From positions 1 through 36,063 of the forward strand of contig WBXJ01000003.1 in assembly GCA_008933045.1 (NCBI GenBank): a stretch of DNA of 36,063 nucleotides, read 5' to 3'. The stretch comes from Verrucomicrobiota bacterium. GTDB taxonomy: Bacteria; Verrucomicrobiota; Verrucomicrobiia; Limisphaerales; SXQI01. Both the position numbers and the translations under genes were made by a program. Positions 15,440 to 32,505 of this stretch are shown in pieces (positions within the stretch are counted from its first letter, which is position 1; every line of letters starts with the position of its first letter). The notes beneath the pieces are model-generated. The model saw only the letters and a list, made by a program, of their open reading frames with translations. It had not been told where the DNA came from and did not search any database.

Positions 15440-16974
15440 TCCGATCCATTAACTCTATTTTCAATTCGTTTATGATGCCCCAATACTTAAAGGTCGCGAG
15501 CCTCGCGATTGCCCTCGGTCTCTCCGCCCTCTGGGTCCGCGCCGACCTGACAACCGACGAGGCCAAGTATTATGAGATCGTCACGATTCCGATACCCAAA
15601 GAGATCACTCTGGAAGCAGGTGCCTTGCAGGTCATGCCCGACAACAAACTCGCCGTCTCAACGCGGTTGGGGAAAATCTACATGGTCGACGGCGCATTCG
15701 AGCGACCACCTACTCAGGCAAAATTTACAGAGTTCGCCCACGGCTTGCACGAGGTCCTCGGCCTAACGGTGCGCGATGGTTGGGTCTATTGCACTCAACG
15801 TGGAGAGGTAACGCGCATGAAAGATTTGAACGCCGATGGTCGCGCCGATCTTTTTGAAACAGTAGCCGACGCCTGGGGAGTCAACGGTGATTATCACGAA
15901 TATGCCTTTGGTTCCAAATTCGATAAGGACGGAAACATCTGGGTTGTCCTATGTTTGACAGGTTCATTCACCAGCGAGGATCCCTTCCGTGGTTGGTGTT
16001 TTCGAGTTGGTGCAGATGGTAAAGCCGTCCCTACTTGCAGCGGCATACGTTCCCCGGGTGGCATCGGTACCAATGCGTTGGGCGACATGTTTTATACCGA
16101 TAACCAAGGACCCTGGAATGGGGCGTGCGCCCTCAAACATCTGAAGCCCGGCCATTTCATGGGCAACCCTTCAGGTAACAAATGGTATGATTCCACCGAC
16201 GTCCTGGGAGCCCGTCCGCTGGAACCCAAAAGCGGCAGCCGGATGCACCTCGAGGCAGTAAAAATTCCTCAACTCATCCCGCCCGCCATTATTTTTCCCT
16301 ATAACAAAATGGGCCAGAGCGCCAGCGGCATCGCCTGTGATGTCTCGAAGGGGAAATTTGGCCCATTCAAGGACCAATTGTTCGTTGGAGATCAAACCCA
16401 CAGCACTGTCATGCGCGTCTCCTTGGAAAAAGTGAATGATCGTTATCAGGGTGTCGTTTTCCCCTTTCGTCAAGGGTTCGCTTCCGGCAACCTGAGTCTA
16501 GAATTTGCGCCCGATGGTTCACTGTTCGTCGGTGGAACTGATCGCGGTTGGGGTGCACGTGGGGGTAAACCTTTCGCGCTGCAACGATTGATTTGGACCG
16601 GATCAATTCCTTTCGAAATTCTTGATATGAAAGCCAAGCGGGATGGCTTTGAGCTCAGCTTTACCGAACCCGTGGATCGTGCGACAGTCGAAGCAACTGC
16701 CTCCTACACCATTCAGGCCTACACCCATATTTATCAGTCCAGCTACGGCAGCCCAGAGGTAGACGTCACCAAGCCCACGATCAAAAAAATCACCGTTTCC
16801 TCCGATGGTTTGACAGCTCGACTCTCCATCGACGGGTTAGTCGAGGGTCACGTGCACGAACTGCATTTCCCCGGCATCAAGTCTGCCAAGGGTCAGCCAT
16901 TACTCCACAACTCCGCCTACTACACCTTAAACTACATCCCCCCCAACGTGCAGGCCAGCGTCACACCACGGTGA
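15436..16974 (+). CDS. Exported beta-propeller protein of the glucose/sorbosone-dehydrogenase-like (DUF7133-type) family
   Basis: Signal peptide; motifs [33 protein letters not shown] and [17 protein letters not shown] overlap with the cytochrome stop and GAGGAG upstream; ATG 15472 or 15475 are alternative starts. Confidence 0.7.
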
Positions 16975-17830
16975 CCTGATTCTCCAACACGCCGATGCCC
17001 GATATTTTCATCCGCACGATATCGTGCTGCTGCAACGTGAAGGAATCCTCTGGCACCACTCCAGTGCCGGTGAACAGGATCACTCCGTGCGGAAAAGTTT
17101 GGCTCCGCAATAAGTAGCCCATCAATTCATCGAACGTCCGCTTGATCTGTCCGACCTTTGTCGAACCGCAGAATACCTCCTCGCCCCCGCGTTCGATGCT
17201 AACGCCAATCTCCCACTCGCGTGCCTCCTCCTCCGTCGCGCCTACAACCATCCATGGCCCCAACGCGCAGGAACGATCATAAATTTTTGCTTGCGGCAAA
17301 TAGAGCGTATTTTCTCCCTCAATATCCCGTGAGCTCATGTCATTACCAATCGTGTAGCCCCTCAATTGCCCCTGTGAATTGATAATCAACGCCAACTCCG
17401 GCTCGGGCACATTCCAACCCGCATCACGACGAATCCCCACAAAGTCATTCGGGCCGACGACCTTCTCCGGCATTGACTTAAAAAATAGCTCGGGTCTCGG
17501 TGCGTCGTAAACTCGATCATACGCGCTCGCGTTGTGATCCGATTCCTCCATCCGCGCTTTCTTACTTCGCAGGTAAGTTACTCCCGCCGCCCACACCTCC
17601 TGCCGCTCCACGGGGGGGAGCAGTGTCACATCTGCGAGGGTCAACTCAGGGTGAGACCCCTGCTGTGCCCACTCAGTGACCCTGACCAGTTCCATCTCGT
17701 CCTCCAATAATTCGGTCAACGTCCGCACACCAGCTTCCCTCAAGTCGATGACGCTCCGACCCTCCGTGACCAACCCGACACGGGATTCGGACTCTCCCGC
17801 AACTCGATAGCGGCAAAAAATAGTGCTCAT
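16961..17830 (-). CDS. Fumarylacetoacetate hydrolase family protein, 2-keto-3-deoxy-pentonate dehydratase (KdaD/XylX)-like
   Basis: Motifs [57 protein letters not shown] and TGTG. Confidence 0.8.
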
Positions 17831-17908
17831 TGAATGTTTGATTTTGTAGAGCTGGTGTATGCACCTTTCTCTCGTTTCACCAGTAAAAACTCCTCCTAAA
17901 TTTCTGCT

Positions 17909-17937
17909 TTGATTCCCTCGCCCCCTTCACGCATGGT
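17909..17937 (+). promoter_or_regulatory. Candidate promoter for rmuC, possibly giving a leaderless mRNA
   Basis: TTGATT-17 nt-CATGGT, then 7 nt to ATG 17945. Confidence 0.35.
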
Positions 17938-17944
17938 TCTCTCC

Positions 17945-19180
17945 ATGTTCTACTTTCATGATTTCTTGGTTTTTCTCACCGGTGCTGTGTTGGCTTGGGT
18001 TCTCTGCCGGTTTCGCAACCAGACGCGCCTGACTGAGTTGAGCACCATTCTTGATCACGAACGCCGTGCCCATGCCGAGAAACTCGCCACGGTCGAGGAT
18101 GCTCAGCGACGACTTTCCGACACCTTTCAAGCACTTGCCGCCCAATCACTCCGCGCAAACAACGATTCCTTTCTCCTACTAGCTCGGCAGGAGTTTGCTC
18201 AACTTCAACAATCCTCCACCTCAGAATTGAATCAACGCTCCGAAGCCATCGCTGGCCTTCTACGTCCCATGCGCGAATCCATTGATAAGGTCGATGCCAA
18301 AATTGTGGACCTCGAAAAATCACGCACCGCCGCCTTCGCCACCCTTGATACTCAACTCAAATCTCTCGTGGATGCACAAAACACCCTCCGCACCGAGACC
18401 ACCACGCTTTCCAGAGCCCTTCGCAACCCCAACACCCGTGGTCGCTGGGGTGAACTCCAGTTGCGCCGAGTGGTCGAACTGGCTGGCATGCTCAACTACT
18501 GCGATTTCTATGAGCAACGCACCGTCGCCTCAACCTTCGTCCCCGATACAAAATTGCGTCCAGACCTGACCGTCAAACTCCCGGGCGGTAAATGTATCGT
18601 GATTGATGCCAAGGCTCCGCTCGAATCTTACATCCTCGCACTCGAGGCTTCCGACGAAACCGTGCGCATCGCCCGCCTTCAGGAACACGCTGCCACCGTG
18701 CGCAGGCATCTCCTTGCGTTGGGTCGTAAATCCTATTGGGAACAGTTTGAAAACTCTCCCGAGTTCGTGGTGCTTTTTCTCCCCGGCGAAAACTTCTTCG
18801 CGGCTGCTTTGGAGTGCGACCCCTTGTTATTGGAAACAGGGATCACCGAAAAAGTGATCCTCGCAACCCCCACGACCCTCATTGCTCTACTCAAAGCCGC
18901 TGCCGCCGGTTGGCGAGTAGAGGCACTCGCCGAAAACGCCCGCGAAATCGCAAAATTAGGTCAAGACCTCGCCAAACGGATGGACGATATGAACACCCAT
19001 TGGGTCAAACTAGGCCGATCTCTTGGTGGTGCTGTGAACTCCTTCAACGATGCCCTTGGCTCCTACGATCACCGCGTTGCCCCCGCTGCCAAGCGTTTTC
19101 TCGAAATTCAACAACTTCCCGCACCCACCGAGGCAGCGACCCCCCAAGCCATCGCCATGCTCCCGAAACCAAGGGAGTAG
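17945..19180 (+). CDS. rmuC: DNA recombination protein RmuC
   Basis: N-terminal TM helix and coiled coil; motifs RGRWGELQL, LRPD, IDAKAP, K.YW, PEFVVLFLPGE and ATPTTLIALL. Confidence 0.93.
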   Translation: MFYFHDFLVFLTGAVLAWVLCRFRNQTRLTELSTILDHERRAHAEKLATVEDAQRRLSDTFQALAAQSLRANNDSFLLLARQEFAQLQQSSTSELNQRSEAIAGLLRPMRESIDKVDAKIVDLEKSRTAAFATLDTQLKSLVDAQNTLRTETTTLSRALRNPNTRGRWGELQLRRVVELAGMLNYCDFYEQRTVASTFVPDTKLRPDLTVKLPGGKCIVIDAKAPLESYILALEASDETVRIARLQEHAATVRRHLLALGRKSYWEQFENSPEFVVLFLPGENFFAAALECDPLLLETGITEKVILATPTTLIALLKAAAAGWRVEALAENAREIAKLGQDLAKRMDDMNTHWVKLGRSLGGAVNSFNDALGSYDHRVAPAAKRFLEIQQLPAPTEAATPQAIAMLPKPRE

Positions 19181-19201
19181 CCTTACGAAATCAATTCACA
19201 A

Positions 19202-19230
19202 TTGCGCCACCGGTAAGGCCGGTTTACGGT
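19202..19230 (+). promoter_or_regulatory. Candidate promoter of the FKBP gene, leaderless geometry
   Basis: TTGCGC-17 nt-TACGGT, then 6 nt to ATG 19237. Confidence 0.35.
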
Positions 19231-19236
19231 TTCTCT

Positions 19237-19305
19237 ATGTCGATGACCGATTTACAAATTGAAGTGCTTGCCAAAGGACAAGGTCCGCTCGCCGCTGCGG
19301 GCCAA
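19237..19305 (+). pseudogene. 5' fragment of an interrupted FKBP-type peptidyl-prolyl isomerase gene
   Basis: Reads MSMTDLQIEVLAKGQGPLAAAGQ, the typical FKBP first strand (L.IE.L..G.G..A..GQ). It joins in frame to 26733..26996. Confidence 0.85.
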
Positions 19306-19311
19306 TCCGTC
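19298..19311 (+). repeat. Left junction direct repeat CGGGCCAAtCCGTC
   Basis: Matches 26725..26738 (CGGGCCAAaCCGTC) at 13/14 positions; the first 8 bp are identical. Confidence 0.85.
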
Positions 19312-19717
19312 CACGAAGTTCATTCTGTTTCATCGCGGTTACCTCTGGATTGGGGAAACCGCCCCGATCATGCAGCGCGAGGGCAAGCACGTCTGGATCG
19401 ATTCGGTCTGGTTGCCAACCATCAGCTACACGATGGGCAAGCGCGCCTATGAAGAGTGGCTCGAGGTTATGCCAAGCAACCACCTGATGTGGGGCCCTGA
19501 CGCCCACCACGTCGAAGGCATCTACGGCGCGACCGAGTTCACGCGCCGTTGTCTGGCGGAGGCGCTCGCCGAGAAAGTCGAGCGGGGTGAACTCCGCGAA
19601 GTTGACGCACTCCCCATCGGCCAACAGGTGATGCGCGACAACGCGCTCGAATTATTTCCGCAGTTGAAGGATCGGCTGTGGAAACACAAAGGCAAATTGC
19701 CGCCGCCATCGAAGTGA
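19301..19717 (+). pseudogene. C-terminal fragment of an amidohydrolase_2-family (TIM-barrel) protein
   Basis: Reads ANPSTKFILFHRGYLW..HVWIDSVWLP..LMWGPD..EG..G..MRDNALELF. The N-terminal part of the barrel is missing and the fragment starts at the insertion junction. Confidence 0.75.
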
Positions 19718-19790
19718 TGTTCACACCCTTCAGGCTGGCTCAGAGTGGACGCCTGGTGGCTCATTGGCTCATCTGGGTAGAATTGAAGTT

Positions 19791-22700
19791 TTATCTGAGT
19801 TTCGTGACGCTCCCATCGAGTCGAATTCTCACTTCCAGAGCGGGAACCGGCAGTGTCGAGCGGGTTGTTTTGCCGCCCGGCCAGTGAACCTCGATTTGAT
19901 TCGCGCCGGCGGGCACGGAGATGACCTGAACGGCACTGTCCTGCGACCAATAGCCTGATCCGGCGTGAACCTCCCGCGCCGGGCCGAGTTTGGATTCATT
20001 TCCGACGCGCAAAATGGCCCCGACACCCAGGGCGTTGCCGGGCGGGCCTTCCAGCCGGACCCGCAGGCCGGGTTTTGCCAAGCGATTGTGCAGCAGCCGG
20101 GTCCGGGCCGAGTTCTGGGCCACCGCGATATCAACCCGACCATCCCCATCATAATCGCAGAGAGCGGTCCCGCGCTGCTCGCCATAGACAAGAATCCCGG
20201 ACTCCTGCCCCGGAACGGTGGTGAATCTCCCCGCGCCATCGCCGCGCAGCCACAGGCCGCGTCCCGCATCCTGGCGCGGTATTGAAAGTTCGACCCCAAA
20301 GAAATTCTGGCCCAGAAAAATGTCCTCGTTGCCGTCGCCATCCAGATCGCCCGCGTTGACCCCAAAGGCGGGGGCGAATTGGGCTTCGGCTGGAAGGGGG
20401 AGGGACTCAAAATGATCGCCGCGGTTTAGGAAAAGAGTCGTTTCCAGCATGTTCAGCCGGAGTTCCCCAAAGCTTTTCAATTTCTCCCTAAACATTTCCG
20501 CCAAACTCGATGAGCCGTACTCCTGATGCGAAGAAAACCGCTCGATCAAAAATGGGAAGGTCGCCATCATGGGTTTCCAGTCCCGCAAGGGGTAGAGTTT
20601 TTTGCTTTCAGCATCCTGGTAGGCCTCGAACAGCGCCATCGCCCCGCCGCTTTCCACAGCGGTGTAAAACAAGCGCGCTTCCCCCGCGATGGTCGCCTGA
20701 TATTTGGTGTTGCGACCCAAATTGGAGGCGAGGATATCCAGGCGCCCGTCTCCGTCGAAATCGCCGGTCGTGATCCCATTCCAGCAGCCGCGCCATTTAG
20801 AGAGCGATGGTTTCAAAGGATCTTCGCTCAATTTTCCTTTCTTGTTCCAGAAAATGTGGATGCCCCCCCAGTCTGTGGCCACCAGCAGTTCGGGAAAACC
20901 ATCCGCATCCAGATCGCTGAAAACGGCCCCGCTCGCCATACCGAGAGGGGCCAGCAGAAGGTCGCCCTCTTTGTCCGGCTGGAACCGTCCTGATTCGTTT
21001 CGGAAAAGATGGGAGTCGGCAGCTTGGGGAAACCTCCCCGGGATCACACGTCCCCCCACAAACAAATCCAGATCCCCATCCCCGTCGATGTCGGCCAGCG
21101 AAAGAGGCCCAACACTGGAGGAGCCCGATGGAAGTCCCTCGCCGGGCGTGATGCCGGCGCCGTTGATCTCAAATCGGCCGACCCCGTTCGTGACCCCTTC
21201 CTGATAGCTAGAAAGCCCGATGAACAGTGTGCTGGAACCGTTGGCGGCCGACCAACCGACGAGGCCGGTTTGGTCTCCGGGAGTGACTTGGTCTAGCGGG
21301 GCGGCTGACCAAGGCGAAAAGCCGCCCTTCCCGTCATTCAGGAAGAAGGCCGCGCGGCCCCCTTTCCCACTGCCGATCACTAAATCCTCCCAGCCATCGC
21401 CATTCAAATCCAGCCAAGCTAGGCCCGGCCCCAAGCCGCTGAGGCTTCGCGGCAGCAACGGCTCGCGCTCGAAATCATTGAAGGGCTCGTCAAAATGGGT
21501 GTGGTTCAGCAATTCGCTGGCGTCCTCAAATTGTGGGGGAGGGGAATTCCGAGAGGGTGGGGGAGTGCCAAGCGCGCCCGCCTCCGCGATTTCATAAACA
21601 CGGTTCGGGGTAGCGTTCGTGACCATGCTCGTGCTACCCCCGCGCCACACCACTCTGATTGTCATGGATTGGCTTTGCCTCGCCGCGAACATGCGCATGG
21701 CCTCATCGCTCGAAAGATAACGGCCCCCGCAGATGATCTCCTGACTTTGAGCGGGGAGAGGAGAGGCGGGTTCATTGGGTGTGACGCAAATTTTTGCGCC
21801 AATCCCGGCCGTGTTCTTTGGTTTGCCTTTTAGCCTCACCGCGACCCGGGGGAGGGTCGTGTCATTTCGGAAGAGTTCCGGCTCGCTGTTGAGGGTGGCG
21901 ACGATCACATCCATGTCCCCATCGTTGTCCAAATCGGCCAGGATCATGCCCTGCGAAACCGTTTTGCTGTCGAATCCCCAGCTTTTCCCGACTTCCTCGA
22001 AGGTCAGATCGCGCTTGTTTCGAAAAGCGCAATTTGGCGTTTCGAGTTTTGGGGTGGAGCGGCGCAGGTCGAGTTTTTCCTGCCGGGTCAGTTTCTTTTG
22101 AGCCTTGAGCGCTTCCAGTTTCTCGCCCACATCCATGTTTTGGCTGTCCGCAAAAAAGCCGTTGGAGACCAGCAGATCCTCGTATCCATCCAGATCGACA
22201 TCCAGCAGAATGGGAGTCCATGACCAGTCCGAGGACTCCAATCCCGCATAAAACGCAATCTCCGCAAAAGTGCCGTCCCCGCGCCCGAGGCCGACGGTGT
22301 TCATCAAATTTTGTGGCCTGCCGGGCAAATCCAGCTTCCCCCTGTTGATGGACGCCGTCATCCCAGCCTGAACCATTCTGTTGGCATGGTCGCGGGGCAG
22401 CATGTCCATCACGATGAAATCGTCGTGCCCATCCCGGTTGATATCCCCGAAGTCCACCCCCATGGAGAAGACGCTCGTTTTCCGAATGGCCGTTCTCGCA
22501 ATGGCCCGGAAATGCCCCTCGCCGTCGTTGATCCAGATTCGGTCCGGACTGAAAAAATCATTACAAACATAGATGTCGGGCGCCCCATCCCCATTTAGGT
22601 CGCGCATCATCACTGAGAGGCCCCAATCGTAGGGTGTTTTGCTCGGGGCTCCGTCCTCATCGCGAAATGCGCCACCCTGCCATGGCACGGCGGAAAATTT

Positions 22701-23519
22701 GCCCGTCCCATCATTCAGGAATAAGCTGTCCGGCTCGCCGTGCTCTGTTATTCCCGTGGTCGGGTTGTAGGTGAAACGCCCCACCAAATCCGGATCCGTC
22801 GTGGGCCTGCCGTCCACCATGGTTACGATAGTCCGCCCATTGGGCTCCTTGAGCATTCGAAACCGGGTGTCCGGCTCGTCGCGCAGGGTGGAGGAGCGAT
22901 AGTTCTCAACATATAAATCCAAATCCCCATCCCCATCCACATCCGCCAGGGCGAGAGAGGAGCCTCCCCTCGGGCTTTTAAGCTCCGGGCTGGCCGTCTC
23001 GAGAAAATGCCCTTTCCCATCATTCAAAAGGGTGGAAACACCTTTGCCGATACTGTTCACGATGAGATCCAGGTCGCCATCGCCATCCAGATCGGCCAGG
23101 GCGACGCCGGTCGCGCTTAACTTGGTGCAAGCCGCCCCCGACTGCGCCGTGATGTCTTGAAAGTGCCAGTTCCCCAAATTCCGGTAGAGGGCCCCGCCCC
23201 CCTCCAGCCGGGCAAAATAAAGATCGCACAGACCATCCCCGTCCACGTCGCCGGCGGCGACCCCCGACCCATTCTGATAGATGCTGTTTGTGACGGCCAG
23301 ATCCATCCGCAGAAAATTAGTGGCCACAATTCCCGTGATGCTGCCCGTCATTTTTGTAAAGCCGGTTTTTCCCTGGAGAGGAATCGGGAGGGTCGCGCTG
23401 CGAAAGCCATCGCCCTCCTGCCATTGCAAAGTCCCGGCGCCCGCCGGAGCGACACAAAACACGGACAAGAAAAACACGCCCAAAAGGCCCGAAAAACCGT
23501 GGAAAACGGATGATGGCAT
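19791..23519 (-). CDS. Secreted FG-GAP/VCBS-repeat protein with ASPIC-UnbV domains (CRTAC1 family), 1242 aa
   Basis: Signal peptide; many DxDGDGxxD Ca-binding blade repeats; SDWSW motif; ASPIC-UnbV-like segments VRLKG...N..GIGAKI..GGRYLSSD and VRLEG...N..GVGA..GSGYWSQD. Confidence 0.9.
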   Translation of the reverse strand: MPSSVFHGFSGLLGVFFLSVFCVAPAGAGTLQWQEGDGFRSATLPIPLQGKTGFTKMTGSITGIVATNFLRMDLAVTNSIYQNGSGVAAGDVDGDGLCDLYFARLEGGGALYRNLGNWHFQDITAQSGAACTKLSATGVALADLDGDGDLDLIVNSIGKGVSTLLNDGKGHFLETASPELKSPRGGSSLALADVDGDGDLDLYVENYRSSTLRDEPDTRFRMLKEPNGRTIVTMVDGRPTTDPDLVGRFTYNPTTGITEHGEPDSLFLNDGTGKFSAVPWQGGAFRDEDGAPSKTPYDWGLSVMMRDLNGDGAPDIYVCNDFFSPDRIWINDGEGHFRAIARTAIRKTSVFSMGVDFGDINRDGHDDFIVMDMLPRDHANRMVQAGMTASINRGKLDLPGRPQNLMNTVGLGRGDGTFAEIAFYAGLESSDWSWTPILLDVDLDGYEDLLVSNGFFADSQNMDVGEKLEALKAQKKLTRQEKLDLRRSTPKLETPNCAFRNKRDLTFEEVGKSWGFDSKTVSQGMILADLDNDGDMDVIVATLNSEPELFRNDTTLPRVAVRLKGKPKNTAGIGAKICVTPNEPASPLPAQSQEIICGGRYLSSDEAMRMFAARQSQSMTIRVVWRGGSTSMVTNATPNRVYEIAEAGALGTPPPSRNSPPPQFEDASELLNHTHFDEPFNDFEREPLLPRSLSGLGPGLAWLDLNGDGWEDLVIGSGKGGRAAFFLNDGKGGFSPWSAAPLDQVTPGDQTGLVGWSAANGSSTLFIGLSSYQEGVTNGVGRFEINGAGITPGEGLPSGSSSVGPLSLADIDGDGDLDLFVGGRVIPGRFPQAADSHLFRNESGRFQPDKEGDLLLAPLGMASGAVFSDLDADGFPELLVATDWGGIHIFWNKKGKLSEDPLKPSLSKWRGCWNGITTGDFDGDGRLDILASNLGRNTKYQATIAGEARLFYTAVESGGAMALFEAYQDAESKKLYPLRDWKPMMATFPFLIERFSSHQEYGSSSLAEMFREKLKSFGELRLNMLETTLFLNRGDHFESLPLPAEAQFAPAFGVNAGDLDGDGNEDIFLGQNFFGVELSIPRQDAGRGLWLRGDGAGRFTTVPGQESGILVYGEQRGTALCDYDGDGRVDIAVAQNSARTRLLHNRLAKPGLRVRLEGPPGNALGVGAILRVGNESKLGPAREVHAGSGYWSQDSAVQVISVPAGANQIEVHWPGGKTTRSTLPVPALEVRIRLDGSVTKLR

Positions 23520-23581
23520 CGGTTCCTAATCCTACAACCCAACCGGAATAACTCCATCTCTTTCTGAGACCCCCTTGTACG

Positions 23582-23611
23582 AAAAAGAGGCCGGGCCACC
23601 GGCCCGGCCTC
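23582..23611 (-). terminator. Intrinsic terminator after the 969-aa gene
   Basis: Perfect 11-bp stem GAGGCCGGGCC/GGCCCGGCCTC with a 3-nt loop, followed by TTTTT on the minus strand. Confidence 0.85.
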
Positions 23612-23635
23612 CGCGAAACATTTGCTCTCGTTGGA

Positions 23636-26545
23636 TTACTTGATCAAACGATAGAATTTGGCAGAGCCTGTGGCTGCGACGGTCGCGGTGCTCACCCCTC
23701 CGTTCACCACCACGGCGTCCGCCGCATTCTCGTAGCCACGGTCAACCGTGGCGGAGCTTTGTAGTTTGAATCCTGTGCCAGTCCAGGAAATGACGGCATT
23801 GGCTCCATCTTTCGCAATGCTCAGGATTGGAGCGGGTTCCGGAAGCCCGTAAGACCCAAACCCATGGATGTTTGAAACACTGTAATACGCCGGATTTTTG
23901 CCGCTTGTGTCCGTCATCCCGATGTAGCCAATTAAGACTTTTTCATTCAGGACGCTAGTGTGAGACCCGTCCGCCTCCCAAGTGACGCCGTCATAGGAGT
24001 AATAGAAGTTGAAGATATCTCCCGCTCTCCGGATGCGCAACCAGCGCGAGGCGTCAGGTGAGGTGTTGGGCATCTGCGCGCCCGAGGCGTCCGCAGTGAT
24101 CAGCCTTCCGAACCGGCCCTGCACACCATTGATCTTCGTGCCGGTCCCTATCGGACCGGTGTTGCCGTAACCGCCGCCTTCGTTGTCCCGCCAAATTCCA
24201 ATGGCGGTCCGTTCCTGGTTGGCCTCGGCATAGGTCGTGTACATCACGTGCTTAACTTTCGTTCCATTGGAGGTGTAATCCTCGTCCGGCAGGTAGAGCG
24301 AATTGCGCACCATCAGACCGGCGTGGCCGTAACTAGCGGTGCCGATGGACCGATCAAGGCGGTCCACCCCAACAACGACGTCGAAATCGCCGGTGACTTC
24401 CTTGTAAAGGAAGTGGCCGAAATCGCCAGCGTTCCAGAGGTTAGAGCCACCACCGATCACTTCCACTTCGATGTTGTCCCCGGAGGAAACGCCCACCGAC
24501 TGGCCCACCACGAAGGGATCGTCGCCGTCTTGCGAGCGGTTCTCTGGATCGAAGGCGCCAATATCGACTGCCTTCCAGTCGGAGGCTTTGGCCTGGACCG
24601 AGGAGTTCGCTGCGATCGTGTTGCCAGCCGCGTCTTTCACGCCGTTTACCTTGACCGTGAAGGTATCTGCGGTCAACCCGGTCACTGTCAGATGGACCGT
24701 GTTCACATTCAACCCTGATTTCACCGCTGTCACAGTGCCACCTGACACGATGAAATTGGCGGTTTGCAGGGAGGCCGCACTGGGGGCCTCAGAAAACTTC
24801 ACACCAATGGTTTTCTTGTCCAGAGTGCCGGCCGAGATCAGCGTGGGAGCGGTCGTGTCGCTGAGGTCGGTGTCCAAGAAGTTTTCGAACGTGGCTGTGC
24901 CGCCATACAGGCCGACCAGGAGGTCATCCGCCAGGTTGTTCATATAACGCTCGCTGATCAGGGACCATTGCTGGCCATTGATTCCTACGAAGGCCTGGAA
25001 GTTGTCCCCCACGCGCCGGAGCCGAATCCATTGATTGGGCAGGTTGTCGGCGACGCCACCATAGCCTCGCCCAAATTGGCCGAGCCCAGAAACATCATCC
25101 GCGATTCCGCGCAAGTTGATCTGGTCGGTCACCGAGATTCTGACCTGGATATCGTTGGGTTCGGCCCCAACCGAGGCCCTGAGGCCAACCTCTCCGGCGC
25201 TGACTGAGGTGATCTGAACCTTCTTGTCAAAATCACCCTTGATCGCGTAATAAGCAAAGTCATCGGCGATCGAGAATGAGTTCGGACCCGAGCTGATTGT
25301 GCCATTTCCCGCCCTCATCGGGAGCGTGATTCCGCTGGCCTGAGTGTTGGCGGCGATCGTGTTGCCAGCGACGTCCTTCACCCCGCTGATCTTGATCGAG
25401 TAGGGCCCAACGGCAACCCCGGTCACAGTCAAATGAACCGTCTTTTTGTCGACGGCGAGAGCGGCGGCCACAACCTGCCCTCCACCCACTAAGGTGTAAT
25501 TTTCGGCTTTGTCGGTGGTGTTCTGGTTCATCAAACCATCAAACGCGATGCTGATGCTGTCAATAAAACCGCCGGTGCGATCCACCGTTGGGCCGAAATT
25601 GTCGAGTTTGACGCCCAGATTCACCGTGGAGCTTGTCGTCGAAGAGCCCGGGATGGAGACCACAACCTTGATCTTGCTCTGGTCGTCGGCCAGACTCAAC
25701 TGTGCGATTTTGAAAGTCGCGCTGTTCGCCCCGGGCACAGCCACATTATTCACAAACCATTGGTAACTGACGTCGTCCGAATTGATTTGGGTGTTGCCGG
25801 AGAACCCGAGCGCGACCACCGTGAAAGTGGCCGGCAGGTTTTCAACCGTGTCCATGGCGACCGGTCCCACGCGGATCTCCACCGTCGGATTCGGATAGGT
25901 GAAGTTACCATAGCCGCTGTAAAGCGCTTGTCCGCCTCCATTCGCCGTCGCAAAACCGATCAGCCCGTCAGTCGGGATATCAATCGAGCCCTTCCCAAAG
26001 GACATCCAAGTGAGCCCATCCGCGCTCAGGAAAGCCGAGAATTGGTTGCCCTGCCGTTTGAGGCGCAGGTAATTGTTCGGGGGAAGGTACTTTGTGCTCG
26101 AGAGCCAATTGTTGAACGGGGGATTGGCCCAGTAGAAACCCCCATTGTCCACGGTCCTGATGTGAAAGCCATGGAGCGTGTTTCCCGGTAATTGGCCGCC
26201 ATAAGTTGTGTTGTAAGCCGTCTGACTGCTCGGATCAAGGCTCGACCGAAACATCAGTCCATTCCGGTTGCTGGGCTGGGTGATGCTTTTAATTTGGACT
26301 TTTTTGTCGAAATCGCCGCTGATGGGCTCGTAGACAAAAGTGAAATTGTCGGCTGTCCCCCAAATGTCTGATCCGCCCCCCGTGACCAGAATCTCATCGG
26401 GATTTGTGATGTCCGCTGTGCCGGTAGCATTATTATCGCCAATGTTTGCCGTGGTGAACTCCGCCTGCAGGGGCGGGCTGACTACCGCTGTCAGGATCAC
26501 AGCCGCAAGGGCTATGACAACTGATGTCAATTTCGTTTTTTTCAT
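23636..26545 (-). CDS. Large secreted modular protein: three ConA-like (DUF1349-type) domains, Ig and Big_5-like domains, C-terminal beta domain
   Basis: Signal peptide ending LQA. Three repeats of ..GDFD..V....GL..R....W/YLRL.R.G..F......G..W; an Ig domain with SYQWFVN; two repeats ending GVKD[VA]AGNTIAAN; C-terminus ISWTGTGFKLQSS...KFYRLIK. Confidence 0.8.
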   Translation of the reverse strand: MKKTKLTSVVIALAAVILTAVVSPPLQAEFTTANIGDNNATGTADITNPDEILVTGGGSDIWGTADNFTFVYEPISGDFDKKVQIKSITQPSNRNGLMFRSSLDPSSQTAYNTTYGGQLPGNTLHGFHIRTVDNGGFYWANPPFNNWLSSTKYLPPNNYLRLKRQGNQFSAFLSADGLTWMSFGKGSIDIPTDGLIGFATANGGGQALYSGYGNFTYPNPTVEIRVGPVAMDTVENLPATFTVVALGFSGNTQINSDDVSYQWFVNNVAVPGANSATFKIAQLSLADDQSKIKVVVSIPGSSTTSSTVNLGVKLDNFGPTVDRTGGFIDSISIAFDGLMNQNTTDKAENYTLVGGGQVVAAALAVDKKTVHLTVTGVAVGPYSIKISGVKDVAGNTIAANTQASGITLPMRAGNGTISSGPNSFSIADDFAYYAIKGDFDKKVQITSVSAGEVGLRASVGAEPNDIQVRISVTDQINLRGIADDVSGLGQFGRGYGGVADNLPNQWIRLRRVGDNFQAFVGINGQQWSLISERYMNNLADDLLVGLYGGTATFENFLDTDLSDTTAPTLISAGTLDKKTIGVKFSEAPSAASLQTANFIVSGGTVTAVKSGLNVNTVHLTVTGLTADTFTVKVNGVKDAAGNTIAANSSVQAKASDWKAVDIGAFDPENRSQDGDDPFVVGQSVGVSSGDNIEVEVIGGGSNLWNAGDFGHFLYKEVTGDFDVVVGVDRLDRSIGTASYGHAGLMVRNSLYLPDEDYTSNGTKVKHVMYTTYAEANQERTAIGIWRDNEGGGYGNTGPIGTGTKINGVQGRFGRLITADASGAQMPNTSPDASRWLRIRRAGDIFNFYYSYDGVTWEADGSHTSVLNEKVLIGYIGMTDTSGKNPAYYSVSNIHGFGSYGLPEPAPILSIAKDGANAVISWTGTGFKLQSSATVDRGYENAADAVVVNGGVSTATVAATGSAKFYRLIK

Positions 26546-26679
26546 ATTGTTTTCTCTGCAATCAGGCGGAGCTACAGAGCCAAGTCGATATGGCTTCTCA
26601 CACGTCTCGAGTGTGGATTATTGTCTGCAGTTCAACAGGATTGTTTCGATACACTAAGAATAAAATTACCCCGTGAAAA

Positions 26680-26697
26680 GTCACCAGTTATGGTGAC
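26680..26697. promoter_or_regulatory. Perfect inverted repeat GTCACCA-GTTA-TGGTGAC, candidate operator
   Basis: 7-4-7 palindrome ~135 bp upstream of the 969-aa gene and 27 bp from the right junction repeat. Confidence 0.35.
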
Positions 26698-26724
26698 GTA
26701 ACAAGTCAATCGGCTTCGACGAGT

Positions 26725-26738
26725 CGGGCCAAACCGTC
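26725..26738 (+). repeat. Right junction direct repeat CGGGCCAAaCCGTC
   Basis: Partner of 19298..19311, offset 7427 bp. Confidence 0.85.
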
Positions 26739-26996
26739 ACCGTCCACTACACAGGTTGGTTCACCGACGGATCCAAATTTGATTCCTCGGTGGATCGCGA
26801 TGATCCTTTTACGTTTCTTCTTGGGGCAGGGCAGGTCATTGCCGGTTGGGATCAATCCGTTGCCACTCTCCGCGTCGGTGACCACATCAAGGTCACAATT
26901 CCTCCCCACCTAGCCTACGGAGCCGCAGGGTATCCGGGTGCGATTCCTCCCAACTCGACCCTCGTTTTCGAGATTCAGCTGCTGGCCGTCGCTTAA
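26727..26996 (+). pseudogene. 3' fragment of the interrupted FKBP-type PPIase gene
   Basis: Reads GQTVTVHYTGWFTDGSKFDSSVDRDDPFTFLLGAGQVIAGWD...IPPHLAYG..G.PG.IPPNSTLVFEIQLL. There is an in-frame TGA at 26694 and no start codon between it and the FKBP sequence. Confidence 0.92.
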
Positions 26997-27240
26997 GGAG
27001 CTTTTCTCAGAGGGGTGGGGTAACCATTTTTGGGTCGAAAATTTTGTCACATTTCTGTTGCACAATTGTCGCTGGACAGCTTTACTTAAATTGTCCCTTA
27101 ACAATATGTGTTCCGATAGCAGCTTAAACCCTAGCTTGTGGCGCAGAGTCTCTGAATCTTGTGGGTGCTTGATTCGATGGGCTTCTGTGGCCTTTTTTAG
27201 GTTAAACCCAGCTGCTCAGGAATTCTTCCCAAAGACTCAT

Positions 27241-30200
27241 ATGCGAAATAATCAACCCGTTGGTTTTGGTCCACAAAGTGGATCCACTCCGACACTTCTA
27301 CCCTCCTTTGCGCGGATGTTTTCCGCGTTGAGGGCCAAGAGTGGCCGCGTTGGACGGCTTCTCACAGTCGCCTCCAGTGTCAGTCTTTTGACTGGCCTGA
27401 GCGCTCAAGCCGCCATTTACAGCAATAACTTCGACGCCGGACTCGGTGACGCAGTCGTTGCAGGTAGTGCCTATCATATGGCCACCGGCGGAATCGATAA
27501 CACCGGCTATGTAAGTGTTACGGATGCAGTGAATAGCCAACAGGGCATGTTCGTGCTTCCTGAATTTACAAATGGCGAATTGGTCAGTGGTTTCAAAGCC
27601 ACCTTTAAGGTTCAAATCGGCGGTGGAACTTCTCGTGCTGCCGACGGTATGGCGTTTGCGTTCAGTTCCTCGATCGATGAAGGTTCGACCTTCGGTGAAG
27701 AAGGTCCTGCGGGAGCCGCTCTGATTGTTTCTTTTGATACTTGGGATAACAACGGTACCGATACCGCTCCTTCAATTGACATCAAGGTCAATGGAAATGA
27801 CGATGCTAGTATTGTTGCTACCACTTGGTTAGCGGGTGAACGTGAAGGTGGTCGCACACGTCCGAGTGCCATCTTCAAAGATCCACTTGGCAAGGAAGTT
27901 AGTCTGATGACGACCGGTTGGGCTGATGTCAGCATCGAAGTGAAGGACAACGTCCTGAGCGTGTCCTACAAAGGCGTCGAGACCGTGAAGGGTGTGGTTG
28001 TCGCGTTTCCTCCTACAGCGGGTCGCTTCGCTTTCGGTGCTCGCACCGGTGGTGCTAATGCGAACCAATGGGTGGACAGCCTGCGGATTGAAACCTATCC
28101 TATCACTCCGGGTCTTGCTGGGTTTTCCTATACTCCGGATGGTCTGACATTCAAACTGAACGACATCTCCGGTCAAAAGGTTGATCCCGCCTCTGTATCT
28201 GTCAAAATGGACGGATCAGATGTAGCGATCACCACGTCAAAAGCTGGGGATTTCACCACGGGTGTGTATGCAGGCTCAACACTCTTCCCTGCTGGAAGCA
28301 GCCATAGCGCCACCGTGACCTTCAGCTATGGCACTCCTGCTAAGACAAAATCAATCACATTGCCAGGCACAATTCCCAGCTATGCGGTGTTGGATGCCGC
28401 CAATGTAATCCCTGCTTCCAAAGTGGATAAAACCAGCTCTGGGTTCACAGCGTATGTCCATCGGGCTCGTCAAGATGCCGGTTTGCCCAATGACACGGCT
28501 CGTACTGAAGCCCAATTGCGCGGGTTCCTAGTCGATCCTCAAACGGGTGCTCCCTATGAGAATTTGGCTGACGACGCGGCGGTGGGTGCCGATCAAACCT
28601 CCCTCGGTAATCGCCGGTTCACTCTTCCTGTGATCAACTTGGATCAGAACGCGGCGGATCAAGGAAACTTCCAGTCTACCTCGGATCCGAGCCGACCTGA
28701 AAGCCAGTTCCCCGGTCTTGACCCCAGTATTCCCGGTGGAGAGTTGGAGAACTTTGCGGACGAATTCATTGGCTTCTTAGAATTGCCAAAAGGCGTCATC
28801 CGCATGGGTGTCAACAGCGACGACGGTTTCTTGGTCACCAGTGGTGCTGATCCTCGTAATCCTTCGGCAACGAAATTAGGTGAGTTCCAAGGAGGCCGTG
28901 GAGCTTCCGATACGATCTTCAATGTTTACGTGCCAGTGGCGGGCATTTATGCCTTCCGTGTGATTCATGAAGAAGGCGGCGGCGGAGCCAACTGTGAATT
29001 CTTCACAATCAAGGCCGATGGAACCAAAGTCCTCGTGAATGATCCCGAGGTTGCTGGAGCCATCAAATCCTACCGCATTGCAACTCTCAGCACCACCGCA
29101 CCTGCTTACTTTGCAGGATCCATCCCAGGGAATAATTCGAATACATCCCGCCAACCCAGCTTCCGTGTTGGTTTGTCGGATTCCGGCACCAAAGTGGTCA
29201 AAAGTTCCATCAAGGTCAGCCTTGATGGTGTTGACATTACCTCTGGCGCAACGGTCACACAAGTTGCGGGCGACACGACCATCACTTACTCAACCACTGC
29301 GCTTCTTCCTTACGGATCCGCTCATGCGTTGGTTGTCACTTGGTCTGATAATGGTTCACCCGCTAAGGCGAACGTAAATACCGTTAACTTCAATGTGGGT
29401 GGCGGCGTGGTGATGAAAGTTTATCGCGACATTAATGGCGGAGGAGTCGGCGACCTGACCAATTCAGAAAAATTCATCAGCAATGCCCCAGATGAAGTTT
29501 CTGAAGTGGGAAGCATGGAACATCTAGCTCTTGGTGACAATTACGGATCCGAAATGCTCGGCTATTTCGTTCCTGACCATGATGATACCTATACCTTCTA
29601 TCTGTCCTCAGACGACGGTTCAACGCTATGGCTCTCGACCGATGAAAGCCCAGCCAACGTGGTTCGTATTGGTAATCAGGGCGGTTGGAATGGTGACCGC
29701 GAATGGGTCAGCGGTGGCGATGCTGCCGCGCGTCAATCGCCTCCGATTGCTCTGAAAAAGGGCAGCCGTTACTTCATGTATGCCTTGCAAAAAGAAGGCG
29801 GCGGCGGAGACAGTCTCTCGGTGGCATTTACCGATCTGACCACCAAAACCACGATCGTGAACGGCGACGCGGCAATCTCCAAGCAGATGCAGCCCTTCAC
29901 CGGTGCTGGTTTCTCTGCATCACCAAAATCGGCGACCGTCAGCAAGGGCCTGACTTATTCGGCAAGTGCTCGCGCCATTAGTGCTACGGCAGGTGCCATT
30001 AGCTATCAATGGATGCGCAACGGTTCCCCGATCTCCGGCGCGACCAGTCCAGACTATACCATCGCAGCAGTCGCCTTCCCTGGTGACAACGGTGCTAAAT
30101 TCACCGTGGTTGCTACAGTGGGTGCTATCACAGCAACCAGTGCGGAAGCCGTCCTGACCGTGGTTGACGACAACGCCGCTCCTGTTGTTGCCTCTGCTTA

Positions 30201-32427
30201 TGCAAGCAACCGCAGGACCGTGGTGATCAAGTTCAACGAGCCAATCGCGTCAGGTGCTGATGTCGCAGCGAACTACTCCGTCAGTGGCGGGGTGGGCGCA
30301 GCAACAGCCGCCGCCGCCTCGGGTTCGGGTGCTATCATTACTGTGGGTGCAGACCTCGTGGTCGGTAATACTTACACCCTCACGGTGAAGGGAACTAGGG
30401 ACTTCGCTGGCAACACGACAGCCGCTGCAACAGCGACCTTCACGGTCACCTTCGCCTCGGGCTTCGTGCTATACGAACGCTATGATGGTATCGGTGGCAC
30501 CGCCGTCGATGCCCTCACCGGCGACGCCAAGTATCCGAATTCACCAGACGCGACAGGTTATCTCACATCAATGAGCTTTGAGCCGAACTTGGATAATTAC
30601 GGAGTGAGAATCTCTGGATATATCACACCCGCAACCACGGGTAACTACCGGTTCTTCATTCGTTCGGATGATGCCTCTCAGATGTGGCTATCCACGGATG
30701 ACACCGAAGCTAATGCTTCCAAGATCGCCGAAGAAACAGGATGCTGCAACGGCTTCCAAGAGCCGCTCGATAAATCTCAAACATCCGAGCCACAAAACCT
30801 GCTCGCAGGAACACGTTATTACTTCCACGCTTTCATGAAAGAAGGCGGCGGCGGCGACAACGTCCAATTGGCTTGGCGCGAAGAGGCGGACACTACGCCA
30901 GCCAACAAACTCGGTAATCTGAGCGGTTCGGTGCTTGGAACCTACGTTGATCCAACAGGTCGCGGAGTGAACATCCTCACCCAGCCCCAATCAGCCTCTG
31001 TGGTTGAAGGTCGGACCGCTACTGTATCGGCACTCGCTGTCCCAGTACCTGCCAACGGCGGCTTGAGCTACCAATGGCAGTATAAGCCACCGGGCTCAGC
31101 TGGATTCGTCAACATTGATGGAGCCACGGGAGCCAGCTACACCAGCGGTCCTCTGCCTTTGGGCTTGAACGGCGCATTGGTTCGTGTCATCGCTTCCACC
31201 ATCGGTGGAATCTCCACAGCTTCTACCGAAGTTGTGTTAACGGTCACCAAGGACAGCAGCGCACCTGTGGGTCGTATCCACACAGTGAGCGGCAACGGGG
31301 GAGTTCAGATCCGGGTTGACTTCGACGAAGATGTCAATGCGGCTTCGGCCTTGGCACCCGCCAGCTATTCGTTGAGCAAAGGATCCATCTCGAGCGTCAG
31401 CCTAGTCGGTGCTCGTGGGGTCATCCTCCAGACTACGGGCCTTTCAATCGGCGATAGCTTCGTGCTCACCCTCAGAGGTGTGAAGGACTTGTTCGGTAAC
31501 TCGGTCACCGGCAGCATCAATGGCAAGGTCAGCACCTTGTCTTGGGTGGAAATCGGTGGTCGCGAGTGGAAGAACACGGCTCCTGACGTGGTTCAAATCG
31601 GCGCGAATGACTTCGACCTCTACAGCGGCGGTAACGGCTTCTGGAGTAACTATGATGAAGGCACCTTCCTCTACGAAGAAGTCACTGGCGACTTCAACCG
31701 CCAAGTCCGTGTGGAGTATCAAGATGCTTCCTCGCACTGGGCACGTTGCGGTCTGATGGTTCGCGTTGCGACTGACGAAGGCACAACCCGTGCTCAAGCG
31801 CAAGAAATCGTTGATGGGGCTCCTGGTCCAAAAGCCATGAGCCAATATCAACAACTCTTCTTGGATCCAACCACCAAGTGGGATGGTAGCGGCGCCAACA
31901 ACGGTCATGAGACCAATCGCCGCACCGAACCCGGTGCACAAACCGGCAGTTCCCAGAACAACTTTGGTGGTACGCCTCCTCCTTACCCCAACGCTTGGAT
32001 CCGGATGGAACGCAAGGGTGATGTTCTGAGCTACTACAAGGGTATCAATGGACTCGATTGGGACTTCGTAGGTAGCATCAAGATCAGCGGCCCAGACTCG
32101 TCATTCACTCCTGAAATGCCTGCGAAGGTGTTGGTTGGAATGATCTATTGCCCAGAAATCGGCAATAACGGTGCAGCGGGTCAAAAGACCTATATGTCCA
32201 AGTTCCGCTCCTACAGCGATGGCGCAAGCGCACCTCCTGCAGACCCAGCGAAACTCACCGTCAGCTCTGCTGATGGTAAGGTTAGCGTTAGTTGGACACC
32301 TACAGGCGGCACACTGCAATCAAGCTCAGCGGTTGGCGCTGGCGCAGTCTGGACCGATGTGGGCGCTGGTAACCCAGCCTCCATCACCCCGAGCAGCGCG
32401 ACGCTGTTCCTGCGTGTAAAGAATTAA
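27241..32427 (+). CDS. Very large secreted modular lectin/adhesin-like protein (~1728 aa): L-type lectin-like, three PA14-like, Ig, Big_5-like and ConA-like domains, C-terminal beta domain
   Basis: Start probably ATG 27241 (or 27316) rather than 26938; signal peptide ending SAQA. Motifs ADGMAFAF..VSFDTWDN (L-lectin-like); SDDG/SDDG/SDDA each with [EK]EGGGG (PA14-like); SYQW Ig domains; FLYEEVTGDF..GLMVR..WIRMERKG; C-terminus VSWTPTGGTLQSS...LFLRVKN. Confidence 0.82.
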   Translation: MRNNQPVGFGPQSGSTPTLLPSFARMFSALRAKSGRVGRLLTVASSVSLLTGLSAQAAIYSNNFDAGLGDAVVAGSAYHMATGGIDNTGYVSVTDAVNSQQGMFVLPEFTNGELVSGFKATFKVQIGGGTSRAADGMAFAFSSSIDEGSTFGEEGPAGAALIVSFDTWDNNGTDTAPSIDIKVNGNDDASIVATTWLAGEREGGRTRPSAIFKDPLGKEVSLMTTGWADVSIEVKDNVLSVSYKGVETVKGVVVAFPPTAGRFAFGARTGGANANQWVDSLRIETYPITPGLAGFSYTPDGLTFKLNDISGQKVDPASVSVKMDGSDVAITTSKAGDFTTGVYAGSTLFPAGSSHSATVTFSYGTPAKTKSITLPGTIPSYAVLDAANVIPASKVDKTSSGFTAYVHRARQDAGLPNDTARTEAQLRGFLVDPQTGAPYENLADDAAVGADQTSLGNRRFTLPVINLDQNAADQGNFQSTSDPSRPESQFPGLDPSIPGGELENFADEFIGFLELPKGVIRMGVNSDDGFLVTSGADPRNPSATKLGEFQGGRGASDTIFNVYVPVAGIYAFRVIHEEGGGGANCEFFTIKADGTKVLVNDPEVAGAIKSYRIATLSTTAPAYFAGSIPGNNSNTSRQPSFRVGLSDSGTKVVKSSIKVSLDGVDITSGATVTQVAGDTTITYSTTALLPYGSAHALVVTWSDNGSPAKANVNTVNFNVGGGVVMKVYRDINGGGVGDLTNSEKFISNAPDEVSEVGSMEHLALGDNYGSEMLGYFVPDHDDTYTFYLSSDDGSTLWLSTDESPANVVRIGNQGGWNGDREWVSGGDAAARQSPPIALKKGSRYFMYALQKEGGGGDSLSVAFTDLTTKTTIVNGDAAISKQMQPFTGAGFSASPKSATVSKGLTYSASARAISATAGAISYQWMRNGSPISGATSPDYTIAAVAFPGDNGAKFTVVATVGAITATSAEAVLTVVDDNAAPVVASAYASNRRTVVIKFNEPIASGADVAANYSVSGGVGAATAAAASGSGAIITVGADLVVGNTYTLTVKGTRDFAGNTTAAATATFTVTFASGFVLYERYDGIGGTAVDALTGDAKYPNSPDATGYLTSMSFEPNLDNYGVRISGYITPATTGNYRFFIRSDDASQMWLSTDDTEANASKIAEETGCCNGFQEPLDKSQTSEPQNLLAGTRYYFHAFMKEGGGGDNVQLAWREEADTTPANKLGNLSGSVLGTYVDPTGRGVNILTQPQSASVVEGRTATVSALAVPVPANGGLSYQWQYKPPGSAGFVNIDGATGASYTSGPLPLGLNGALVRVIASTIGGISTASTEVVLTVTKDSSAPVGRIHTVSGNGGVQIRVDFDEDVNAASALAPASYSLSKGSISSVSLVGARGVILQTTGLSIGDSFVLTLRGVKDLFGNSVTGSINGKVSTLSWVEIGGREWKNTAPDVVQIGANDFDLYSGGNGFWSNYDEGTFLYEEVTGDFNRQVRVEYQDASSHWARCGLMVRVATDEGTTRAQAQEIVDGAPGPKAMSQYQQLFLDPTTKWDGSGANNGHETNRRTEPGAQTGSSQNNFGGTPPPYPNAWIRMERKGDVLSYYKGINGLDWDFVGSIKISGPDSSFTPEMPAKVLVGMIYCPEIGNNGAAGQKTYMSKFRSYSDGASAPPADPAKLTVSSADGKVSVSWTPTGGTLQSSSAVGAGAVWTDVGAGNPASITPSSATLFLRVKN

Positions 32428-32429
32428 TC

Positions 32430-32461
32430 GCATCATCCCGCTCCTGAGCGGGAATGAATGC
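32430..32461 (+). other. Stem-loop immediately after the stop codon
   Basis: Core TCCCGCTC-CT-GAGCGGGA with imperfect GCATCAT/ATGAATGC extension; lies just before the terminator. Confidence 0.45.
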
Positions 32462-32469
32462 TGAATCAC

Positions 32470-32505
32470 AAGGGGTCGGACGAAAGTCCGGCCCCTTTTT
32501 TCTTT
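32470..32505 (+). terminator. Intrinsic terminator after the 1728-aa gene
   Basis: AAGGGGTCGGAC-GAAA-GTCCGGCCCCTT (GNRA loop, one G-U pair) followed by a T-rich tract. Confidence 0.88.

Follow-up and report, generated by a model that had tools for sequence, protein, structure and literature searches.

The skin element of Bacillus sigK and the nifD, fdxN and hupL elements of cyanobacteria encode their own site-specific recombinase and excise on cue. To our knowledge, illegitimate recombination is the only route into a bacterial chromosome for DNA that has neither homology nor mobility genes; it is known mostly from laboratory selections, and its frequencies are extremely low. Template switching of the fork stalling and template switching/microhomology-mediated break-induced replication (FoSTeS/MMBIR) type, known mainly from eukaryotes, yields an insert of distant origin: the copying strand departs at a microhomology and comes back to its template a few bases before the site where it left, so that a short duplication flanks the insert. 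Here we analyze a 7427-bp segment, hereafter the islet, which splits a gene for an FKBP protein in a Verrucomicrobiota bacterium of the order Limisphaerales (GenBank assembly GCA_008933045.1, contig WBXJ01000003.1). The stretch of DNA analyzed, referred to as the window, has 36,063 bp and is a whole contig (C3) of a fragmented metagenome-assembled genome (MAG) of 2.73 Mb (310 contigs, 93% complete, 52.1% GC). The islet is probably a random piece of a foreign chromosome that was integrated into the FKBP gene by microhomology-guided illegitimate recombination, without a recombinase.

Like the skin and nifD, fdxN and hupL elements, the islet consists of kilobases of DNA between short direct repeats that split a gene, and its removal restores the frame; unlike them, it has no recombinase that could be found, and one of its repeat copies is ordinary coding sequence of a truncated foreign gene. 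With integrase-borne genomic islands it shares atypical composition, strain-variable presence, surface or secreted cargo and direct repeats at the ends, but it lacks an integrase and a tRNA or transfer-messenger RNA (tmRNA) target, lies inside a coding sequence and has one end within a truncated gene. A FoSTeS/MMBIR-type event would resemble the islet in the microhomology at departure and in the short flanking duplication, although we propose it here for a bacterium in which the template would be foreign DNA. A close parallel may be sought in Acinetobacter baylyi, for which a recent report describes homology-facilitated, double and short-patch double illegitimate recombination, in which, as in the islet, foreign DNA is joined at short or extended, mismatch-tolerant microhomologies, without a dedicated recombinase and with end points anywhere, including inside genes; extended microhomologies with mismatches are, according to the same report, a known substrate of illegitimate recombination with foreign DNA (bioRxiv 10.1101/2023.11.22.568220). 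The short-patch events described there span 3 to ~100 bp (10.1101/2023.11.22.568220), as opposed to 7.4 kb in the islet. Furthermore, homology-facilitated events depend on a long stretch of homology to one side of the insert, for which the islet gives no sign: beyond a 14-bp repeat, nothing in it resembles the flanks, although such an anchor would escape notice had near-identical sequence taken its place. In laboratory products, the microhomologies of the two junctions usually differ, whereas the islet has a flanking direct repeat, and A. baylyi is naturally transformable, a trait that the lake bacterium may or may not share.

The split gene and the boundaries of the islet are defined by the following features, for which genome G003, of the same genus and the closest species-level relative compared, serves as the reference:

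19237-19305, forward strand: FKBP 5′ piece, codons 1-23, translation MSMTDLQIEVLAKGQGPLAAAGQ, matching residues 1-23 of the G003 FKBP with 61% identity
19298-19311, forward strand: left repeat copy CGGGCCAATCCGTC, which from 19300 on is also native amidohydrolase coding sequence (A-N-P-S)
19306-26732, no strand: inserted foreign segment of 7427 bp, absent from the collinear G003 locus, with ends that can be slid to the left by up to 8 bp
26725-26738, forward strand: right repeat copy CGGGCCAAACCGTC, native FKBP sequence (G-Q-T-V)
26733-26996, forward strand: FKBP 3′ piece, codons 24-110 plus stop, TVTVHYTGW...LLAVA, Pfam FKBP_C 7.8e-33

The two FKBP pieces are separated by 7427 bp bordered on both sides by CGGGCCAA[T/A]CCGTC. 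Reading from the 5′ piece continues out of register to a stop at 19450-19452, and the 3′ piece, which spans positions 10-94 of the 94-position FKBP_C profile with 94% amino acid identity to G003, has no start codon of its own: its frame opens after the TGA at 26694-26696 and the first ATG, GTG or TTG is the GTG at 26790. No single frame of the window contains a complete FKBP_C domain, as opposed to the G003 gene, which covers profile positions 3-94 of 94 (2.4e-36). The sequence thus reads as the initial annotation had claimed, with an FKBP gene split between direct repeats, removal of the 7427 bp restoring a 110-codon frame, and no new start supplied to the 3′ half. The window contains two copies of the motif CGGGCCAAWCCGTC and no more, at 19298-19311 and 26725-26738, against 0.01 occurrences expected in shuffled sequence, which excludes a pairing by chance; these are also its only two places in the entire 2.73-Mb assembly. 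Three other FKBP-domain paralogs are encoded in the assembly, two on contig C14 and one on C90, so that the insertion has inactivated one of four. Both halves look undecayed, the five differences between the C-terminal piece and G003 being all conservative.

The uninterrupted form of the gene is preserved in the same genus. Positions 10381-19176 of the window are collinear with positions 18611-9839 of G003 locus L021 (76.0% over 8808 nt), and 26727-36063 with 9717-373 (75.3% over 9398 nt). Between these two blocks, G003 carries one uninterrupted FKBP gene of 108 codons, directly downstream of rmuC, the neighbor beside which the initial annotation had suggested looking for intact orthologs. The N-terminal piece of the window matches L021 9780-9712 and the C-terminal piece the next codons, L021 9711-9457; at the position of the break, G003 reads GGACAGACAGTT (G-Q-T-V), within A-G-Q-T-V-T-V-H-Y. 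The two halves are therefore adjacent codons of a single open reading frame (ORF) in G003 and belong to one gene rather than to different paralogs, the alternative raised along with the original proposal. The small FKBP ortholog is matched end to end in all three same-genus genomes, and only residues 21-108 of it match in one piece in the genome of the window.

Both states of the locus also occur in nature. Of 24 public sequencing runs listed, 19 contain at least half of the sampled words of 18500-27500; the runs holding the locus are all lake or freshwater metagenomes, with 15 studies among 20 holders. Contigs, not raw reads, of four runs from four studies were placed on positions 17000-29000. 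In three of these, from independent studies, the islet is present and both junctions are spanned by contigs (X1, 17000-20144 and 24684-29000; X2, 19247-25104 and 25506-26785; X6, 17508-25588 and 25886-27073), which supports the junctions. In the fourth run, X12, a single contig of 3787 nt connects 19297 directly with 26725 and leaves out exactly 7427 bases, while 8 bases fit either side; the empty site that was to be sought in population data is thus represented. This contig differs from the window flanks at 10 of 1820 and 8 of 1967 positions (18 of 3787). The same run also contains islet pieces identical to the window, at a depth of 2-5 versus 7.25 for the empty-site contig. No circle-type joint at the islet ends was found among the contigs of the four runs, although contigs cannot show rare forms. 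Collectively, these results indicate that the insertion is real and that the species carries interrupted and uninterrupted alleles. The insertion is probably a young presence/absence polymorphism, with the uninterrupted allele most likely ancestral. In comparisons between lakes, the islet shows less diversity than the flanks: X2 shows 19 differences in 7484 nt of islet pieces, compared to 17 in 1944 nt of the left and 37 in 1950 nt of the right flank, and X1 shows 15 in 4607 nt of pieces lying wholly inside the islet. This pattern fits a single recent acquisition followed by spread.

The origin of the flanking repeat can be traced to the two parental sequences. A blastn alignment of the islet with the G102 amidohydrolase gene (85.0% over 421 nt) sets in at 19300, a position within the left repeat copy. 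At the site of GCGGGCCAATCCGTCCACGAAGTTCAT in the window, four amidohydrolase orthologs read GA(G/A)GC(C/G)(A/C)A(T/C)CC(G/A)nnCACnAAGTTCAT, which corresponds to E-A-N/H-P-x-T-K-F and can be summarized as GAGGCCAAyCCGnnCACnAAGTTCAT; judged by these orthologs, the left repeat copy, GGCCAATCCG..CAC.AAGTTCAT, belongs to the coding region of the donor amidohydrolase gene itself, and the T that distinguishes it from the right copy is the third base of the amidohydrolase Asn codon. The right copy, GGCCAAACCGTC, is FKBP's own sequence, encoding G-Q-T-V as in G003 and in the empty-site contig. The donor GGCCAATCCGTC in the amidohydrolase gene and the target GGCCAAACCGTC in FKBP match at 11 of 12 bases, and the two repeat copies in the product agree at 13 of 14. 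Given that the left copy is native to the donor gene in the orthologs, the repeat probably represents microhomology between donor and target rather than the footprint of a transposase. The left crossover lies within GGCCAA (19300-19305): the CG that precedes it is target sequence, because the orthologs have GA there, and the T that follows it is donor sequence. Thus, although CGGGCCAA is found on both sides of the insert, the donor gene itself has GGCCAA and the bases that come after it in the left copy, so that this copy need not be duplicated target. The sequence of the left junction is common to donor-native and target-native DNA, and the left endpoint is arbitrary, inside a gene.

Four features account for all 7427 bp of the islet, listed here together with a hairpin between its two intact genes:

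19313-19717, forward strand: 3′ remnant of an amidohydrolase gene (Amidohydro_2 family), retaining the final ~134 of ~462 codons and truncated at the left junction
19791-23519, reverse strand: intact gene for an FG-GAP/ASPIC (UnbV) repeat protein of 1242 residues, Pfam FG-GAP_3 4.1e-84 and UnbV_ASPIC 6.9e-13
23586-23612, reverse strand: terminator-like hairpin of 12 pairs (10 G-C) followed by a T run, from a consensus scan only
23636-26545, reverse strand: intact gene for a secreted-type protein of 969 residues with Pfam DUF1349 (lectin/glucanase-like) and Big_5 Ig-like domains
26546-26724, no strand: non-coding sequence of 179 bp upstream of the 969-residue protein gene, forming the right end of the insert, with no ORF that has a family match

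The amidohydrolase remnant, whose frame differs from that of the FKBP start, matches positions 167-288 of the 289-position Amidohydro_2 profile with 22.8 bits, below the cut-off of 26.4, as expected for a fragment. Its orthologs in other families of the same order have 462-468 residues and are 81-90% identical to the 134 residues of the remnant, which, as only this last part is matched, lacks ~70% of the gene at the 5′ side. The remnant carries five private radical substitutions (G12R, P15L, G21A, A22P, A66P), all in alignment columns that do not vary among eight orthologs; four lie no more than 22 codons from the junction, and the two closest relatives of the remnant have one such change each. 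The remnant has either decayed after truncation or was damaged already in the donor. The two intact proteins both have signal-peptide-like N termini, and the hairpin between their genes may mark them as separate transcription units. A promoter scan of the islet returned one weak site, fewer than in shuffled sequences, and is uninformative. The order of a Big_5/DUF1349 gene followed by an FG-GAP/ASPIC gene is also found elsewhere in the order (for example, G033:C49 and G028:C42), and the cargo is a complete, self-contained copy of a common module that is multi-copy in the lineage. Within the gene for the 969-residue protein, a direct repeat of 99 nt (24605-24703 and 25346-25444, 76% identical) probably represents two copies of one repeated domain.

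No integrase, transposase or recombinase family of Pfam was detected in the three coding pieces of the islet or in its 84 alternative stop-to-stop frames of at least 50 residues, and these 84 frames gave no credible family match of any kind. Neither a tRNA nor a tmRNA gene is present in the window. Comparison of the first 80 nt of the islet with the reverse complement of its last 80 nt revealed no terminal inverted repeats (local score of 8 versus a shuffle mean of 7.4; 399 of 1000 shuffles reach this score), and only 3 of 20 terminal bases are identical between the two ends. The 93%-complete assembly contains no second copy of the islet, including its right end, and the missing 5′ part of the amidohydrolase gene was not found there either. 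Hence, the islet is not a mobile element. The initial annotation had correctly described it as free of an integrase or transposase, without evident terminal inverted repeats and richer in GC than its flanks (measured here at 57.7% versus 52.4% and 54.1%), and its reading of the contents holds as regards mobility genes, but it missed that the left end lies inside a truncated amidohydrolase gene.

The foreign origin of the islet is apparent from its composition. GC content at third codon positions (GC3), the codon-level check proposed for this locus, is 0.692 in the gene for the 1242-residue protein, 0.703 in that for the 969-residue protein and 0.769 in the amidohydrolase remnant, whereas the genome has 0.558 ± 0.047 (1369 long ORFs), so that the three pieces rank between the 98.4th and the 99.9th percentile; for native FG-GAP paralogs the range is 0.51-0.56, and amino acid composition is not the cause of the difference. 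The sequence affinities of the cargo are similarly atypical. The amidohydrolase is not found in any of the three same-genus genomes; its best matches in its own family reach 75-76%, compared to 85-90% in three other families, and the loci holding its closest orthologs are islet-like (58.6-61.1% GC, GC3 0.70-0.82). The FG-GAP protein is 55% identical to proteins of other families, 44% to the neighboring paralog and at most 44% to the paralogs of its own genome. The 969-residue protein, likewise not found in the three same-genus genomes, has no homolog above 47% in 40 related genomes; in the collection of species-representative genome contigs it has one relative only, at 35%, in a Phycisphaerae MAG, and in metagenome contigs only a near-identical one of 3367 nt (99.5%), which ends short of both junctions. 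No relative of the cargo was found in viral contigs. None of the four loci with the closest amidohydrolase orthologs has the pair of FG-GAP and 969-residue protein genes downstream, and enlarging the sample of the order to 400 genomes yielded no amidohydrolase ortholog above 90%. The foreign composition together with the affinity to other families suggests that the donor was an unsampled, GC-richer member of the same order. As a separate observation, the gene for the 969-residue protein (23639-26545) differs from the 99.5%-identical contig (L051) by 10 non-synonymous and 4 synonymous changes, suggestive of relaxed or diversifying selection on this protein.

An insert that starts in the middle of a gene, has no mobility function and shares its junction sequence with both donor and target bears the signature of illegitimate recombination. 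The split, the empty site, the truncated donor gene, the donor origin of the left repeat copy, the absence of mobility genes, the atypical composition and the junctions in other assemblies are observations, from which we infer the recombination mechanism, the way the DNA entered and that the event was a gain, not an excision. A gain in this lineage is the most parsimonious, because the gene is uninterrupted in the three same-genus genomes, the composition of the insert is foreign and neither FKBP piece shows decay. A piece of foreign DNA would have been taken up from a GC-richer member of the same order; the left crossover would have occurred in GGCCAA, and the right end would have been attached at a site 8 bp upstream, so that CGGGCCAA now stands on either side of the insert. 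In the scenario that we prefer, a replicative template switch, a nascent strand ending in ...GGGCCAA would pair with a foreign strand at the microhomology, copy the foreign fragment to its end and then re-pair with its first template, a few bases short of where it had left it. The outcome would be the loss of one FKBP paralog and the gain of an intact Big_5/DUF1349 and FG-GAP/ASPIC module. A Campbell-type crossover of a circularized fragment is a possible, less simple alternative. When read across the hypothetical joint of such a circle, the amidohydrolase frame meets a stop ~50 nt upstream; the circularized fragment was down-weighted, as this frame is not restored and the joint would have to abut the edge of the microhomology exactly. 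Of the proposal, made at the outset, of a circular molecule entering by a single crossover at a short homology, the short homology, the lack of an own recombinase and the restoration of the gene by precise removal have stood, whereas the circular molecule is not supported.

Several points weigh against microhomology-guided integration of a foreign fragment. A flanking direct repeat is not predicted by simple two-ended joining of a linear fragment; the pathway may have been a template switch, a circle or a staggered break. Ku was not found in the 93%-complete assembly, and although ComEC and DprA are present, they are near-universal and thus do not establish the entry route. The amidohydrolase remnant is decayed and the FKBP halves are not, so the truncation may predate the insertion and the fragment may have an earlier history. 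No genome or contig searched has a full-length amidohydrolase gene beside the gene pair, that is, the donor was not found, and the match between donor and target sequence accordingly concerns the left junction. The low diversity of the islet may in part reflect differing constraint, given that the right flank is a fast-evolving surface-protein gene. Finally, as only contigs were placed, rare excision products may exist.

Several competing explanations can be considered. Eight bases being a common size of target duplications, the exact 8-bp repeat at both ends of the insert could identify the islet as the remnant of a larger transposable or integrative element that duplicated CGGGCCAA upon insertion and subsequently lost its left part through an internal deletion between the left duplication and GGCCAA in the amidohydrolase gene, which took with it the transposase and the 5′ part of that gene. 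This two-step path reproduces the observed sequence and the decayed amidohydrolase remnant would fit an older, eroded element, yet the deletion must have stopped exactly at the duplicated copy, the five further matching bases (CCGTC) after the single mismatch would be left to chance (~1 in 1000), the searches described above revealed neither a transposase or integrase nor terminal inverted repeats or a tRNA, and the right end has no other copy in the genome; we regard such a history as unlikely. The 8-bp target duplication by a lost element that the initial annotation offered as an alternative is not supported, as the left copy is donor coding sequence and the match extends 5 bases past the 8-mer. 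Even less probable is that the segment is not foreign at all but a duplicate of another part of this genome, made by a template switch or a transposition-like event. The cargo families are indeed multi-copy in this genome and a paralogous pair adjoins the islet in the opposite orientation; however, the 93%-complete assembly holds no duplicate of the islet, the most similar paralog reaches only 44% identity, islet GC3 lies ~3 standard deviations over the genome mean whereas the native paralogs are typical, and neither the amidohydrolase nor the 969-residue protein was found in the three same-genus genomes. An assembly chimera, in which the metagenome assembler misplaced the islet in FKBP, might be suspected because the window is a contig of a 310-contig MAG, but it is refuted by the independent contigs of three other studies across both junctions, and an imperfect repeat of 14 bp would not be long enough to mislead a k-mer assembler; the probability of a chimera is negligible.

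The remaining explanations treat the two alleles as interconvertible. A recombinase encoded elsewhere in the genome might recognize CGGGCCAAWCCGTC and toggle between cargo and intact FKBP, in line with the precise restoration of the gene and with the presence of both forms in one metagenome (X12). However, the presumed site exists at only two places in the genome, its left copy is conserved amidohydrolase coding sequence, and no recombinase is encoded in or beside the islet. Moreover, the X12 empty-site flanks differ from the window at 18 of 3787 positions and the X12 islet pieces at none, which points to two strains rather than a switching clone, although this argument is weak in that shared flanks merge in contig data. 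In addition, repeats of 8-14 bp placed 7.4 kb apart are a very poor substrate for spontaneous deletion. We consider programmed excision highly improbable. The switch between cargo and peptidyl-prolyl isomerase that was initially envisaged has no support: neither a recombinase nor a circle junction was seen, the latter in contigs, in which rare excision products are invisible. Alternatively, the two alleles may be more than a younger and an older state: the repeat, with 13 of 14 bases matching, might permit rare precise loss, and both states, an intact FKBP or an additional secreted-protein module, would be kept in lake populations by selection that varies between lakes or seasons. This would amount to a population toggle without a recombinase that arose from one illegitimate integration; we hold this to be rather unlikely, though somewhat less so than either copying within the genome or programmed excision.

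The left part of the contig consists of ordinary chromosomal genes (lpxK, pgk, tpiA, secG, an Opp-type transporter and rmuC), the last of which borders the FKBP gene:

17909-19180, forward strand: rmuC, Pfam RmuC 5.7e-89, the conserved left neighbor of the FKBP gene

RmuC is 82% identical at the amino acid level to that of G003, in which rmuC precedes FKBP as well. To the right of FKBP, native genes occupy 26938-36062 on the forward strand and encode a PA14/lectin/Big_5/DUF1349 protein of 1829 residues followed by an FG-GAP/ASPIC protein. This pair is the same module as the islet cargo (19791-26545, reverse strand) in mirror orientation, with 29-44% identity. The flanking FG-GAP protein (32454-36062, forward strand) has a marginal match to the Pfam TcdB toxin middle/N-terminal family (25.8 bits, with no stretch passing alone), which most likely reflects similarity at the level of repeats rather than a toxin. 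Between lake populations, the gene for the 1829-residue surface protein differs by 2-4.6% (27000-29000), the left flank by ~0.9% and the islet by 0.25-0.33%; the differences in this gene amount to 37 in 1799 nt in X2 and to 20 in 607, 16 in 448 and 18 in 393 nt in pieces from X6, and include paired 1-bp insertions and deletions near 28646/28654 and 28740/28744. Elsewhere in the genome (G000), contigs C8, C50, C83, C182 and C194 carry clusters of long ORFs with GC3 of 0.70-0.78, atypical like the islet, which may be further foreign segments; C182 begins with the C-terminal end of an FG-GAP protein 51% identical to that of the islet.

The locus illustrates clearly, and in a natural setting, a process that is known but has rarely been documented. 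Three things are preserved together: the truncated donor gene that supplied the microhomology, the unoccupied allele, which survives both in a sister species and in the same natural population, and an insert that is widespread in lakes. For genome annotation it carries a warning, as gene calling would pass over both halves of the FKBP gene and finders of genomic islands based on integrases would miss the insert. The locus can be used as a natural marker for the frequency and spread of such events and for what the cell gives up in exchange, which in this case is a redundant FKBP traded for accessory surface-protein genes.

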